Shown here one piece after another: positions 8,742-16,084 of a stretch of DNA of 55,428 bases. Every line of letters starts with the position of its first letter. Within the stretch, counting starts at the first letter, position 1. The notes beneath the pieces are model-generated. The model saw only the letters and a program-made list of their open reading frames with translations, searched no databases and had not been told where the DNA came from. A program made the position numbers and the translations under genes. Source of the DNA: Actinomycetes bacterium (GTDB taxonomy: Bacteria; Actinomycetota; Actinomycetes; Mycobacteriales; Micromonosporaceae); contig JAJYSW010000001.1 of NCBI GenBank assembly GCA_021793335.1, positions 1 to 55,428 on the forward strand, in the 5' to 3' direction.

Positions 8742-9815
8742 CTACTTCGGGTCGCGGTTCGAGACGGCCGGCGCAGCGCGGACGGGGCGCACGCCGGTCC
8801 CCGGCGGCGTGTTGAGCGTCTCGCCGAGCGCCGCGATGTTGTCGCGCACGGCTTCGGGATCACCGAGACCCTCGACGAACAGGAGCTGGCGGGCCACGCC
8901 GGTCGCCTCGGCGGAGACGGCCAGCCGCTCGGCGACGCGCTCGGCCGATCCGGCCGCGTGCCGGTCGATCATCCAGTCCACATAGGCGGCGTGGTCGCGT
9001 TCGGCACGGCCCGGTCTGAGGCTCACGTACTGGCCGACGCCGCGATTCAGCAGCTCGCTCAGCGTCCGCCGCAGCCGGTCGATGTCCGTCGAGGCCCCGA
9101 TCTGCGCCAGGTGGGTCGATACGTGCTCGGCCCCTTCGGGGTCGCAACCGTGCGCCTCGGCTTCACGCCGCCACGCGCCGATGAGGGCCGCGTGGTCCTC
9201 GTCGGGGGCGTGCATGCCGAGCAGCAGCGGCAGGCCGAGCCGGCCAGCCAGGCGGGCCGTTTCCTCGCTCGTCGCCGCGACCCACACCGGTCGGCCGTTG
9301 CCCGGCGGCATGACGCGCACCGGCAGCACATCGAAGAACTCCCCCGTATGGGAGACCTCCTCTTCGCCGGACAGCCAGTGCACCAGTAGCCGCAGTCCCT
9401 CCTCGAATCCGTGCTCGTACCGGCTCAGGCCGGTGCCGAAGACGTCGAGGTCGATCCACGGGCCGCCGCGTCCGACGCCGAGGCGGAACCTGCCGGGGGC
9501 CAGGGCCTCCAGCATCGCGGTCTCCTCGCCGAGTGCGACCGGGTGCCGGTTGGACAGGACCGCGACCGCGGTCCCCACCTGGATTCGCTCGGTGGCGGCG
9601 AGCAGGTGCGCGGCCATGAGCGTGGCCGAGGGGTTCGCGCCGTATTCGATGAAATGGTGCTCGGCGACCCAGACCCCGCCGAATCCGCCGGTCTCGGCGG
9701 CCTTGGCGTGGCCGACCAGGCGCCGCAGGGTCTCGCCGGGGCTGACGCCGGGGAACACGCCGCCGAGCAGGAACAGGTCATGTGCGGTCACGGGGGACTC
9801 CGTCGAACGTGCCAT
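8742..9815 (-). CDS. LLM-class flavin-dependent oxidoreductase
   Basis: VWVAEHHF, GTAVAVL..HPV..GE, RLGVGRG, VWVAATS. Start taken at ATG 9815. Confidence 0.88.
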   Translation of the reverse strand: MARSTESPVTAHDLFLLGGVFPGVSPGETLRRLVGHAKAAETGGFGGVWVAEHHFIEYGANPSATLMAAHLLAATERIQVGTAVAVLSNRHPVALGEETAMLEALAPGRFRLGVGRGGPWIDLDVFGTGLSRYEHGFEEGLRLLVHWLSGEEEVSHTGEFFDVLPVRVMPPGNGRPVWVAATSEETARLAGRLGLPLLLGMHAPDEDHAALIGAWRREAEAHGCDPEGAEHVSTHLAQIGASTDIDRLRRTLSELLNRGVGQYVSLRPGRAERDHAAYVDWMIDRHAAGSAERVAERLAVSAEATGVARQLLFVEGLGDPEAVRDNIAALGETLNTPPGTGVRPVRAAPAVSNRDPK

Positions 9816-9921
9816 GGCGGCGGGAGCGCCGCGCCGCCGGTCCGGGGCGTCGCTCGCGCCCCGTGCCCCCACGGTTCCATACCGGACCGCAGCGGGCAAG
9901 CACCAGTGTGGCGCACGCTGC

Positions 9922-9951
9922 AAGGGGCGCTCCCGGTCGGGAGCGCCCCTT
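9922..9951. terminator. Stem-loop downstream of the DAHP synthase gene
   Basis: aaggggcgctccc-ggtc-gggagcgcccctt, a perfect 13-bp stem. Confidence 0.65.
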
Positions 9952-9979
9952 TCGGCGATGTCGGTCGTCGGACCGGTCG

Positions 9980-11371
<1,392 letters not shown>

Positions 11372-11531
11372 CTACTTGGGGATCTCGGGCGTGTACAAAG
11401 CCGTTTCGGCCGTCTCAGTGAGTGAGCCCAGGCACGCGAGGAGTATTCGCCTTCAGGGAAGTCGCACGCGACACGCCACAACCGGACGGTCACGGACATC
11501 CCACCTTTCGGAACACGTCTACGCTGAGCCG

Positions 11532-12155
11532 GTGCGCAAAACGACGATTGAAGACTGGCTGACCGACCTCGCCTCGGAGCTTCCCGCCCCCGGCGGCGGC
11601 GCGGCGGCGGGCATGAGCGCGGCGACCGGCGCGGCCCTGGTGTCGATGGTGTGCAACCTGACGGTGGGGAAGCCGAAGTTCGCCGAACACGAGGAGGTCA
11701 TGCGCGAGGCGCTGGCCGAGGCCGAACGGCTCCGCGTCGAGGCGCTGGGCCTCGCCGAGGACGACGCGGAGGCCTTCTCGGGCGTGATGGCGGCCTATAA
11801 GCTCCCGAAGGGCACCGAGGAGGAGCGGGCCGCCCGCACCGCGGCGATCCAGGCCGGACTGGCCGAGGCCGCCGCAGTGCCGCTCGCCGTGGCGAAGGTC
11901 GCGGCACAGGTCGTCCGCGTCTCGGGCCGCATCCTCGACGGCTCGAACCCGAACGTGCTCTCGGACGTGGCCGTGGCCGCGTCGAGCGCGAAGTCGGCCC
12001 TGGAATCGGCGGCGCTGAACGTCGACATCAACCTGGCGTCGATCAAGGACGCCGAGGTGCGCGAACGGCTGGCGAGCGAGCTCAACGAGGCGCTCCAGGC
12101 GAAAGTGCAGGCCGAGGCGATCATGCAGGCCGTGGCGAAGAGGATCAGATCATGA
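11532..12155 (+). CDS. fchA: Cyclodeaminase/cyclohydrolase family (FTCD_C; methenyl-THF cyclohydrolase FchA-like)
   Basis: PAPGGGAAA, MVCNLTVGK, AYKLPK..EE...R, NPNVLSDV, LNVDINL. GTG at 11532 is preceded by TACGCT-N6. Confidence 0.88.
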   Translation: MRKTTIEDWLTDLASELPAPGGGAAAGMSAATGAALVSMVCNLTVGKPKFAEHEEVMREALAEAERLRVEALGLAEDDAEAFSGVMAAYKLPKGTEEERAARTAAIQAGLAEAAAVPLAVAKVAAQVVRVSGRILDGSNPNVLSDVAVAASSAKSALESAALNVDINLASIKDAEVRERLASELNEALQAKVQAEAIMQAVAKRIRS

Positions 12156-13006
12156 GAGAAATCGACGGGCGCGCGGCCGCGAAGGCGCTGCGCGAAGAGG
12201 TCGGCGAAGCGGCCGGGCGGCTCCGGGAGGCGGGTGTCGTGCCGACGCTCGCGGTCGTGGTGCCGACCGACGACGAGGGCACCGCCTGGTACGTGCGCTC
12301 CATCGCGAAGACCGCCGACAAGGTCGGGCTGCGGTGCCGCATCGAGCGCCTGGAGCAGCCGGGACGGGACGACATCGTCGCGAAGCTCCAAGAGCTCTCG
12401 GCCGACCCGGAGGTACACGGCGTCATCTGCCAGACGCCGCTGCCGGAGGGCGTGCAGCTGGCCGACCTGGGCGGCCACATCGACCCGCGCAAGGACATCG
12501 ACGGCGCGAACCCGCAGAGCCTCGGGCGGCTGGCGGCCGGACTGCGGACATGGGCCCCGGCGACGTCGGCGGCGGTGTTGGAGCTGCTGCGCCGCCAGGG
12601 CGTGGCGCTCAACGGCGCCCGCGCGGTGGTGGTCGGCCGCTCGACCGTGGTCGGCAAGCCCGCGGCGCTGCTGCTGCTGGCCGAATCGGCGACGGTCACG
12701 GTGTGCCACTCGCGCACCAAGGACCTCGCGGCGGTGTGCCGGGAGGCGGACGTGCTGGTGGCGGCGGTGGGACGCGCACGGATGATCGGCGCAGAGTTCG
12801 TCAGGCCCGGCGCGGTCGTGATCGACGTCGGCACGAACCCGACGCCGGACGGCGGTCTGGTCGGCGACGTCGACTATGAGACGGTGGCGCCGCTCGCAGG
12901 CGCGATCACCCCGGTCCCCGGCGGGGTCGGGCCGGTGACGACGATGCTGCTGCTGCGGAACACGGTCGAGGCCGCCGAGCTCGCGACGGCGGTCGGCAGC
13001 CCTTGA
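12152..13006 (+). CDS. folD: Methylene-THF dehydrogenase/cyclohydrolase family protein (YxxxK Lys replaced by Ile)
   Basis: QTPLP, KDIDG, VVGRSTVVGKP, TVTVCHSRT, VIDVGTN, ITPVPGGVGPVT. ATGA overlap with fchA. Confidence 0.93.
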   Translation: MREIDGRAAAKALREEVGEAAGRLREAGVVPTLAVVVPTDDEGTAWYVRSIAKTADKVGLRCRIERLEQPGRDDIVAKLQELSADPEVHGVICQTPLPEGVQLADLGGHIDPRKDIDGANPQSLGRLAAGLRTWAPATSAAVLELLRRQGVALNGARAVVVGRSTVVGKPAALLLLAESATVTVCHSRTKDLAAVCREADVLVAAVGRARMIGAEFVRPGAVVIDVGTNPTPDGGLVGDVDYETVAPLAGAITPVPGGVGPVTTMLLLRNTVEAAELATAVGSP

Positions 13007-13267
13007 GCGGCCGCGCGGGACTTCGGACCGATCGGGGCGAGGAGCGAACACTTCACCGAAGTGACGGATACCCGACAGACGGGATCGGCTACTCAGCGTA
13101 ATCTCAAAGATCCGCGGCGCTGATGCGATCCGGCCGAGGCCGGGACGACCGCGGTGCCCGGCCGAAAGCGCGCTGCGCCGGGCGGCCGGCCTTGAGCCGC
13201 CGGGGAGCTGATCGCGATGAACGTGAGGTCGGCAGGCTGCGGGAGCCCGCCGACGCCCCTGGAAAAG

Positions 13268-13308
13268 CCGTTGGCGCGCCCGGTCCGTCAGACCGGGCGC
13301 GCCAATGG
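13268..13308. terminator. Stem-loop between convergent folD and pfk
   Basis: ccgttggcgcgcccggtc-cgtca-gaccgggcgcgccaatgg, an 18-bp stem with one G-T pair. Confidence 0.7.
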
Positions 13309-13354
13309 TGTGTCTTGAGCGCGGCCGGCCCCGGCGGGACCGGCCCGTCGGGGC

Positions 13355-14383
13355 TCACACCCCGAAGAAGACCTCGGCGTCACGGTAGCGTTCGACCGGG
13401 ACGACCTTGAGCACATCGGTGCCCTCGTGGATCGGGATGCGGACGATGTTCGTGCCCTGGAGCGCCATCATCTTGCCGAAGTCGCCGTCGTTCACGGCGG
13501 CGGCGGCCTCCAGACCGAGGCGGGTCGCCAGGACCCGGTCGAACGCGGTCGGCGTGCCGCCGCGCTGGAGGTGGCCCAGAACGATCGCGCGGGTCTCCGA
13601 ACCGGTGCGCTTCTTGATCTCGTCGGCGACCCAGTCGCCCACGCCGCCGAGCTTGACGTGGCCGAACGCGTCGACCTCGCCGTCTTTGAGCTGCATCTCG
13701 CCGCCCTTGGCGATGGCGCCCTCGGAGACGGCGACGATGGTCGACTTGCCGGCGTCCATGCGGTCCTTGACGAAGTCGGACACCCGCTGCATGTCGAACT
13801 CGACCTCGGGGATGAGCACCACGTTGGCGCCGCCGGCGATGCCGGCGTGCAGGGTCATCCAACCGGCGTGTCGGCCCATGACCTCGACGACGATGCAGCG
13901 GTCGTGCGACTCGGCGGTGGTCCACAGCCGGTCGATCGCCTCGGTGGCGATGTTGACGGCGGTGTCGAAGCCGAAGGTGTAATCGGTGCCCGACAGGTCG
14001 TTGTCGATGGTCTTCGGGACGCCAACGCAGTTGACGCCGTCGGCGGTCAGCTTCGTGGCCACGCCCAGGGTGTCCTCGCCGCCGATGGCGATCAGCGCGT
14101 CGACGCCCAGGTCCGCCATGTTCTTCTTGATCGCCTCGACCGCACCCTCCATCTTGTAGGGGTTGGTGCGGGAGGAGTGGAGGATCGTGCCGCCCTTGTC
14201 GAGGATGCCTTCGACGGTGTCCCAGTCCAACGGCTGCGTGATGCCTTCGATCGGGCCCCTCCAGCCGTAGCGGAAGCCCACGAACTCGTGACCGTATTCC
14301 TTGGTTCCTTTGCGGACCGCGGCGCGGATGACCGCGTTGAGACCGGGGCAGTCGCCGCCGCCGGTGAGCACGCCAATGCGCAT
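13355..14383 (-). CDS. pfkA: 6-phosphofructokinase (group III, ATP/PPi)
   Basis: TGGGDCPGLN, GGTILHSSR, IGGEDT, PKTIDND, EVMGRHAGW, LGHLQRGG. Confidence 0.95.
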   Translation of the reverse strand: MRIGVLTGGGDCPGLNAVIRAAVRKGTKEYGHEFVGFRYGWRGPIEGITQPLDWDTVEGILDKGGTILHSSRTNPYKMEGAVEAIKKNMADLGVDALIAIGGEDTLGVATKLTADGVNCVGVPKTIDNDLSGTDYTFGFDTAVNIATEAIDRLWTTAESHDRCIVVEVMGRHAGWMTLHAGIAGGANVVLIPEVEFDMQRVSDFVKDRMDAGKSTIVAVSEGAIAKGGEMQLKDGEVDAFGHVKLGGVGDWVADEIKKRTGSETRAIVLGHLQRGGTPTAFDRVLATRLGLEAAAAVNDGDFGKMMALQGTNIVRIPIHEGTDVLKVVPVERYRDAEVFFGV

Positions 14384-14523
14384 GCGTCGTACTCCCTAGA
14401 GTGAGATCTGTCAACTGGGCGGCTTCATTGCCGAAACTGCACTCAGCCTATCTCGGCACTTCGCGGCGGAGGGGCGGGGCCGTGGAAGCCGTGGCGCATC
14501 GGCCGGGGCGGCTTCGGGTCCGG

Positions 14524-15066
14524 TCAGCGCCGACCGAGCACGGGACGTTCCCTGCGAGCGGCCTCCAGGCACTGCCAGCGGGCGAGGTTGAGCTTGGCGT
14601 CGGTCAGTGCGTCGTGGAGATCGGCGTCGGGAGCGACGGGCAGTTCCGGTCGGTTCAGATCGTCCCAGCGCTGGCGCAGGTCCTTGGTCATTCGCGGCAG
14701 AGCGCGCGGCAGTTCCGGCATGGCGCCCCACAGCTGCGCGAACACCACGTGATCGTAGGCCCCGTACCAGGCCCACAGCTCGATGCGCTCCCCCGGGTGC
14801 GAACCGGTCTTCTTGCGCACCGGCGAGACCAGGAATTCGTATAGCTCGTCGCGGATGGTCGCGCGGTCCTTCCATAGCGGACTGGCCGGCCCGGGGAGCT
14901 TATCGAGTACATTGCGCCGCACCCACTCTATGGCCCTGGAGGGATCGAATTCCGTGGAGACGGCGTAATACTCGCGACCGAGTTCGTCCACGACGCCGAT
15001 GGAGACCAGGTCGATGGTGCGCCCGTCCTCGATGAACTCGCAGTCGTAGAAGTATCGATACGCCAC
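14524..15066 (-). CDS. Polyadenylate-specific 3'-exoribonuclease AS (DEDDh)
   Basis: YFYDCEFIEDGRTIDLVSIG, WAWYGAYDHV, HDALTDA. GTG at 15066. Confidence 0.9.
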   Translation of the reverse strand: MAYRYFYDCEFIEDGRTIDLVSIGVVDELGREYYAVSTEFDPSRAIEWVRRNVLDKLPGPASPLWKDRATIRDELYEFLVSPVRKKTGSHPGERIELWAWYGAYDHVVFAQLWGAMPELPRALPRMTKDLRQRWDDLNRPELPVAPDADLHDALTDAKLNLARWQCLEAARRERPVLGRR

Positions 15067-15391
15067 GCATCGGCCTTTCATAGGATCTCGGGCGGCGGCT
15101 GCAGACCTCGGTGGCCCTCGCCCGTATGTCGCCGGACTCGGGTCGACGCTACGCCATACGATCTTATAGCCGATATCTGACCTCCCGAGCCGACCACGAG
15201 CCATCCGGTATCGGACATTACATGATAAAACACCCATATATGTTCGCACATTCGGTCGAGCGACAATCGTTCCATCTGAACACACGCCCCAACGGAGAGT
15301 GAAGTTTCATGCAATAGGCCCTGTACAACGACGGAAAAGACAGCGATCATCGGAGGGAACCCGGACCGGTCCCACCGAAAGGGGAAGAACC

Positions 15392-16084
15392 ATGGGTGTC
15401 AACCCATCTGAAGACCCGCTAGCAGGCGTCGCCATGTTCGCCGGCCTCGACCCGCAGGCCCGGCGCAAGATCGCCGACGTGGCGGTACCCCGCCACTATC
15501 GTCGAGGGCGCCTGCTGTTCTTCGAAGGCGAGGCAGGCGAGTCTTTGATCATGATCCGTTCGGGGGCGGTGAGCGTCTTCCGCACCGCCGCGACCGGCGA
15601 GCGGGCGATGCTGCACGTCGCGCGCGCTCCCGAGGTCCTCGGTGAGGTGTCGCTACTGGACGGATCGCCGCGTTCGGCCTCGGCGGAGGCGCTGGAGGAG
15701 ACCTCGGCACTGGCGCTGGCCCGCTCATCGTTCCTGGAACTGGTCCACGGCAGCCCCAAGATGCTGGACGCGGTGCTGCGATCGATGGGCATGATCGTCC
15801 GCCGCCTCACCGAGCAGTCCTCGGACCACGTGTTCCTCGATCTTCCAGGGCGGGTGGCGAAGACACTGGTGCGGCTGGCCGAGCAGCACTCCTCCCCCAT
15901 GACGACCATCGAGCTGAACCAGACACAACTGGCCGAGATGGCCGGCGGCTCACGCCAGAGCGTCAACCAGGCGATCGGGATCTTCGCCAACCGCGGCTGG
16001 CTGCGGACCGAGGGACGCAAGATCGTCGTCGTGGACCTGGCCGCACTGCGTCGCAGGGCGGGCTTCGGCGGGGGCGAAGGATGA
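15392..16084 (+). CDS. Crp/Fnr-family transcriptional regulator
   Basis: cNMP motif GEVSLLDGSPRSASA; DLPGRVAK; HTH QTQLAEMAGGSRQSVNQ. Confidence 0.93.
   Translation: MGVNPSEDPLAGVAMFAGLDPQARRKIADVAVPRHYRRGRLLFFEGEAGESLIMIRSGAVSVFRTAATGERAMLHVARAPEVLGEVSLLDGSPRSASAEALEETSALALARSSFLELVHGSPKMLDAVLRSMGMIVRRLTEQSSDHVFLDLPGRVAKTLVRLAEQHSSPMTTIELNQTQLAEMAGGSRQSVNQAIGIFANRGWLRTEGRKIVVVDLAALRRRAGFGGGEG

Follow-up and report, generated by a model that had tools for sequence, protein, structure and literature searches.

In bifunctional FolD, a conserved Lys acts as acid/base in cyclohydrolysis, a Gln positions this Lys and an Asp binds the pterin, as described in the available part of PMC3338484. The E. 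coli K54N enzyme is reported to keep about 19% of its dehydrogenase activity while cyclohydrolase activity is undetectable, and the mutant grows slowly and is insensitive to carolacton, whose binding to FolD requires K54 (PMC5688156, in part). A split between FolD and cyclohydrolase is known from clostridia and acetogens. Reportedly, FolD of the C. perfringens trio studied by Aluri et al. in 2016 is monofunctional and has neither the Lys nor the Gln. A monofunctional FolD with a separate cyclohydrolase is likewise reported for Clostridium formicoaceticum and Acetobacterium woodii (PMC9124964, in part), and in such systems fchA lies directly before folD (consecutive locus tags, PMC9618320), the two steps being divided (PMC3584212). 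In C. autoethanogenum, the abundance of FchA is about 2-3 times that of FolD (308 vs 114 and 221 vs 103; excerpt of PMC9040625), which does not point to a fixed 1:1 partnership in that organism.

An actinomycete pair has also been listed. According to the accessible text of McTaggart et al. 2015 (PMC5023230), Arthrobacter sp. 31Y carries a second FolD (FolD2) beside a non-homologous cyclohydrolase (Mch). The initial annotation of the locus analysed here knew of no such pairing in actinomycetes, a claim that does not survive the Arthrobacter example or the textbook status of the split in acetogens (PMC9124964). Judged by its gene content, FolD2 would belong to the same clade as the FolD described below. 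As far as the accessible text goes, the pair in Arthrobacter 31Y is an extra, catabolic copy in addition to a normal FolD, and the Lys goes unmentioned, whereas in Glycomyces it contains the sole folD and lies between aroH and pfk. A report tying loss of the Lys to fchA linkage in actinomycetes was not found in the open-access literature.

The window (the whole stretch of DNA that was analysed, 55,428 nucleotides) contains an overlapping fchA-folD pair whose nearest named relatives are those of Glycomyces species. As outlined in Table 1, the ATGA junction is where the initial annotation had placed the overlap of folD with an FTCD_C-family gene. Both genes have coding-type GC3 values (0.92-0.93), and they are flanked by genes for a class II DAHP synthase (aroH) and a phosphofructokinase (pfk) on the other strand; all 32 Glycomyces-like loci show the pair between aroH and pfk. 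The upstream motif and the TANNNT box (11495-11525) sit in a 169-bp gap shared with the divergent aroH. Since a TANNNT box occurs 5-8 nt before the GTG start in 32/32 orthologous loci (background in the window 0.4%), a leaderless two-gene transcript is suggested, and we consider this likely from the sequence. An Rfam search over 9000-16000 found no riboswitch and no match to the upstream motif, and a sigma-70/terminator scan gave no hit.

Table 1. Features of the fchA-folD locus (positions in the window).
Feature	Position	Strand	Remarks
Conserved motif, putative -35 region or operator	11495..11508	+	Seen by eye in most of 32 orthologous upstream regions
TANNNT, -10 box	11520..11525	+	6 nt ahead of the GTG start; transcript of both genes likely leaderless
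fchA	11532..12155	+	GTG start; stand-alone FTCD_C protein, 207 aa, predicted methenyl-THF cyclohydrolase
AAGAGGA, Shine-Dalgarno-like, for folD	12138..12144	+	Putative, read from sequence; within the 3' end of fchA
ATGA stop/start overlap of fchA and folD	12152..12155	+	Likely translational coupling
folD	12152..13006	+	284 aa, predicted monofunctional methylene-THF dehydrogenase; PF00763 and PF02882
Y47-x-x-x-I51, YxxxK motif with Lys replaced by Ile	12290..12304	+	Y47 and I51 invariant in 40 clade members
Q94 (E. coli Q98)	12431..12433	+	Kept in the window's clade; Leu/Phe in other Lys-less groups
KDIDG including D117 (E. coli D121, pterin binding)	12491..12505	+	Role as given in the available part of PMC3338484
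G162-R163-S164, cofactor site	12635..12643	+	Invariant in 40 clade members

Alignment with the fetched E. coli K-12 sequence (BLASTP, 38% identity) was gapless over the motif segment, bearing out the gapless alignment of the initial annotation. Y47, I51, Q94 and D117 of the window's FolD match Y50, K54, Q98 and D121 of the E. coli enzyme. Codon 51 is ATC (12302-12304), so that Ile indeed stands at the position of the YxxxK Lys, as does the residue in 25/25 Glycomyces loci; the KDIDG and GRSTVVGKP dehydrogenase motifs, also named at the outset, were both found. The retained partner Gln goes beyond what had been noticed before. The AlphaFold model (pLDDT 94) reached a TM score of up to 0.94 to solved FolDs. 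Thus the window's FolD shares with bifunctional E. coli FolD (1B0A/5O22) the fold, the PF00763 and PF02882 domains and the equivalents of Y50, Q98 and D121, but has Ile in place of K54; it is a FolD-family protein with intact dehydrogenase residues and no catalytic Lys. With the NCBIfam FolD models the best score was 294.8 bits against a cut-off of 421, and all 25 matches listed were below cut-off. R163-S164 would be equivalent to the Arg-Ser pair that PMC6443876, in its accessible part, includes in the NADP site of the silkworm enzyme, and the window's FolD may prefer NADP. Sequencing error or chance was rejected as an explanation of Ile51, which was present in all 25 Glycomyces loci read. 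A pseudogene was likewise rejected: the active-site columns are invariant in 40 clade members and Ile51 is genus-wide.

The fchA product matched PF04961 (FTCD_C) at 211.6 bits and is encoded by a stand-alone gene linked to folD. Its best solved relative was 7VG4, a methenyltetrahydrofolate cyclohydrolase (154 bits, residues 4-201), compared with 100 bits for bifunctional FTCD. The 7VG4/7VG5 protein presumably comes from Methylobacterium extorquens. Its partner is MtdA rather than a FolD (PMC9618320). The NCBIfam FchA equivalog NF045657 scored 209.4 bits over residues 4-206 of 207, below its cut-off of 275; the protein is predicted to work like FchA by context while lying outside this equivalog. 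PGGG, D78, N139, D145 and N167 are invariant. Because folD-linked and formiminotransferase-linked FTCD_C proteins have the same invariant columns, the cyclohydrolase call rests on context. In the FTCD_C tree, the window's FchA groups with folD-linked homologues. An FchA-FolD fusion was not seen among 13 longer FchA homologues, all of them formiminotransferase fusions, which is a weak negative, and tblastn with FchA against the plasmid collection gave no match.

The genome of the window (92.9% complete) yielded a single match each for folD and FTCD_C, while a profile search of it gave no match to Fhs or formiminotransferase. PurN, Fmt, GlyA and a GcvT-like gene are present, and there was no PurU-level match. 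In 25/25 Glycomyces genomes, a single folD lies behind and adjacent to a single fchA, the only FTCD_C gene, and Ile51 together with Gln94 was found in all 25 loci read. Fhs (PF01268) and the FTCD_N formiminotransferase domain (PF07837) were both absent from 31/31 genomes of the genus. Since folD and FTCD_C are single and Fhs is missing from the genus genomes, no route to 10-formyl-THF other than fchA-folD is visible. A Wood-Ljungdahl role was rejected on the same absence of Fhs. Compared with the clostridial and acetogen systems, Glycomyces is an aerobic actinomycete without fhs or Wood-Ljungdahl context; its FolD retains the counterpart of Gln98 and carries Ile instead of the Lys, and the flux would run in the oxidative direction. 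Elsewhere in the window's genome there are two dihydropteroate-synthase-like genes (contig C103, 12699-13484, and C106, 6501-7298), and purN and purH lie about 2 kb apart, with small genes inserted between them and no folD after purH (C11, 14062-18206).

We examined how loss of the Lys is distributed in the family and the phylum. FTCD_C was above cut-off in 20/81 family genomes. In these same 20, FTCD_C adjoins a FolD that shares 60% or more identity with that of the window, and all 20 FolDs are Lys-less (19 loci read, plus the window's genome); ten have no other folD match and ten have another, so that both FolD types coexist in the latter. Of the remaining family folD copies, 10 were read, and these 10 have the Lys. 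No match to the folD query was obtained in G027, G032, G043, G053 and G095 (94-98% complete), which applies to this query only. The phylum sample contained FTCD_C in 145/401 genomes; 110 of the 144 positives besides the window's genome (30 top-scoring loci and 80 chosen genomes) and 80 of 256 negatives were examined. The residue count leaves out unpublished genomes and one fragment; raw tallies include the unpublished genomes G031, G041, G088, G127, G159, G431 and G437, and the claims are independent of these. The initial annotation had asked whether YxxxK loss goes with an adjacent fchA, and such an association was found: all 60 folD copies adjacent to FTCD_C are Lys-less, and the Lys is present in 68/68 copies from 62 FTCD_C-negative genomes (13 further negatives with a folD match were left unread and 3 had no match). 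Away from FTCD_C in positive genomes, 51 copies have the Lys and 4 do not (the place of FTCD_C is unlisted for 4 of the 51). Those FTCD_C genes examined that lie away from folD accompany a formiminotransferase at 8 loci and fhs at 4, and stand alone at 3.

Five Lys-less copies lack an adjacent fch (G402, G122, G181, G427 and locus L164). In G402 (L316, L317) and G122 (L318, L319), the only folD is of the window's clade with Leu at the Lys position, and fch is on another contig; here the cassette has come apart. In G181 (L314, C46:21500-26500) and G427 (L315, C222:9500-14500), the Lys-less FolD directly follows ligA with no dedicated fch. The sole FTCD_C found in these two genomes is formiminotransferase-linked and might double as cyclohydrolase. 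Four loci (L325, L326, L330, L331) carry a distinct FTCD_C subgroup after fhs, two of them near sarcosine-oxidase-like or aminomethyltransferase genes, and the folD copies read there keep the Lys. A very divergent second FolD with a long tree branch (L284, G044:C57:25116-26089) has Gln for the motif Tyr and retains the Lys.

Lys-less FolDs formed three supported groups with two changes on the FastTree phylogeny. Gln94 is kept in 111/172 Lys-less rows, nearly all in the window's clade, and the other groups have Leu or Phe. Tree tests rejected neither a single origin of Lys-less FolDs (p-AU 0.72) nor a sister relation between the window's clade and the housekeeping FolDs of actinomycetes (p-AU 0.27). 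An independent-pairs test had one supported pair, placing significance out of reach, and the correlation between Lys and fch amounts to 1-2 independent events. We therefore rejected the wording 'repeated co-evolution': with a single independent pair and a tree compatible with shared origin, one origin is compatible with the data, and the pattern is one of co-inheritance of a cassette. The FolD and Fch trees track each other in the window's clade (Mantel r 0.85, 0/2000 permutations; 20/37 splits shared). In G336, a relative from the family without any FTCD_C, a folD with the Lys lies immediately upstream of mdh; in the window's genome, no folD precedes mdh. The pair has likely displaced the ordinary actinomycete folD in Glycomyces.

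The two genes are passed on together as a cassette. Outside Glycomyces it is present as an additional copy, frequently within clusters for betaine/dimethylglycine catabolism. Among 80 named loci selected for the similarity of their FolD to that of the window (32 Glycomyces-like and 48 others), every FolD is Lys-less and fch lies upstream in 79, L164 being the exception; two MAG copies of fch are frameshifted. The junction is ATGA in 54 of the 80 and GTGA in 13. The 48 others come from Arthrobacter, Rhodococcus, Geodermatophilus, Microlunatus, Streptomyces and others. A DAO plus aminomethyltransferase gene, an architecture that we take to be dimethylglycine oxidase, lies within 4 kb in 25/48, and purU within 4 kb in 26/48. 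At such loci the pair would oxidize methylene-THF derived from betaine demethylation, yielding formate. In Streptomyces sp. NBC_00727 (L138:761-4819), genes for a cytochrome P450 and a condensation-domain protein precede fch-folD, and this pair perhaps supplies formyl-THF to a biosynthetic cluster.

With good confidence, we read the locus as a Lys-less, monofunctional methylene-THF dehydrogenase together with a stand-alone cyclohydrolase that would supply 10-formyl-THF. GlyA and glycine cleavage would provide 5,10-methylene-THF, which the Lys-less FolD would convert to 5,10-methenyl-THF; FchA would hydrolyse this to 10-formyl-THF for PurN, PurH and Fmt. Most probably, methenyl-THF passes by diffusion from one enzyme to the other; the two would be separate proteins translated from a single coupled and probably leaderless mRNA. 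Replacement of bifunctional FolD by two genes, as proposed in the initial annotation, is upheld by the sole folD, the lost Lys, the overlapping fchA, the lack of a formiminotransferase and the near-perfect co-occurrence. A more elaborate version, which we regard as improbable, has FolD and FchA form a complex with channelling between unrelated folds, encoded on a mobile cassette of soil actinomycetes, with the canonical folD displaced partly through escape from carolacton. Because carolacton binding needs K54 (PMC5688156, in part), a Lys-less FolD would escape natural products of this kind. Channelling gains no support from the fusion search or from G402 and G122, which carry the window's clade with the two genes far apart. 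A 1:1 complex prediction for FolD and FchA (40-row alignments, run without controls) scored 0.01 in both runs, a value that counts neither for nor against binding.

It seems to us very improbable that the window's FolD has stayed bifunctional through an alternative mechanism (with Gln94, water or some other base), FchA being mere extra capacity. The retained Q94 in 111/172 Lys-less rows would fit such a route, as would L164 and G181, where a Lys-less FolD has no dedicated fch nearby, and the silkworm K53A enzyme, for which the accessible text of PMC6443876 reports near-normal cyclohydrolase kcat/Km (0.097 vs 0.13) at very low absolute rates. Yet E. coli K54N has Q98 and shows no cyclohydrolase activity in the account of PMC5688156, which, in the part available, also states that methenyl-THF hydrolysis can proceed spontaneously; this could account for the fch-less exceptions. 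Moreover, the 40-row alignment revealed no new invariant Lys near the site, position 53 being variable, and Lys-less folD was found in 0/62 FTCD_C-negative genomes read.

More doubtful still is a function of the FTCD_C protein as formimino-THF cyclodeaminase, or in some other folate role, with its place beside folD being incidental. The family and invariant residues shared with formiminotransferase-linked proteins and the score below the FchA equivalog cut-off would allow it, but with the formiminotransferase domain absent from the genus genomes there is no known supply of substrate for a cyclodeaminase, and the best PDB relative, a cyclohydrolase, the tree grouping, the fixed overlap and the matching gene trees speak against it. 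We give least credence to a FolD that is also dehydrogenase-dead, being folate-binding or decayed, with Glycomyces making formyl-THF otherwise. The Lys has been proposed to aid hydride transfer in the dehydrogenase step (PMC3368264, in part), and its replacement in K54N costs E. coli about 80% of this activity (PMC5688156, in part); against this, the gene is the only folD in 25/25 genomes that have no Fhs, the cofactor- and pterin-binding residues are invariant, and an intact fold is predicted.

The preferred reading of a dehydrogenase paired with a separate cyclohydrolase is of modest significance and involves no new chemistry. What is new is a Gln-retaining actinomycete clade, often found in betaine-catabolic clusters elsewhere, that serves genus-wide as a housekeeping enzyme in Glycomyces, together with a simple annotation rule. 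The compact, oxygen-tolerant dehydrogenase/cyclohydrolase pair is a candidate for one-carbon pathway engineering. With one residue and one neighbour, bifunctional and dehydrogenase-only FolDs of actinobacteria can apparently be told apart, and the labels 'bifunctional FolD' and 'cyclodeaminase' would therefore misannotate members of this clade in metabolic models. Glycomyces provides a clean case of an aerobic genus in which a two-gene cassette has likely taken the place of a housekeeping enzyme.
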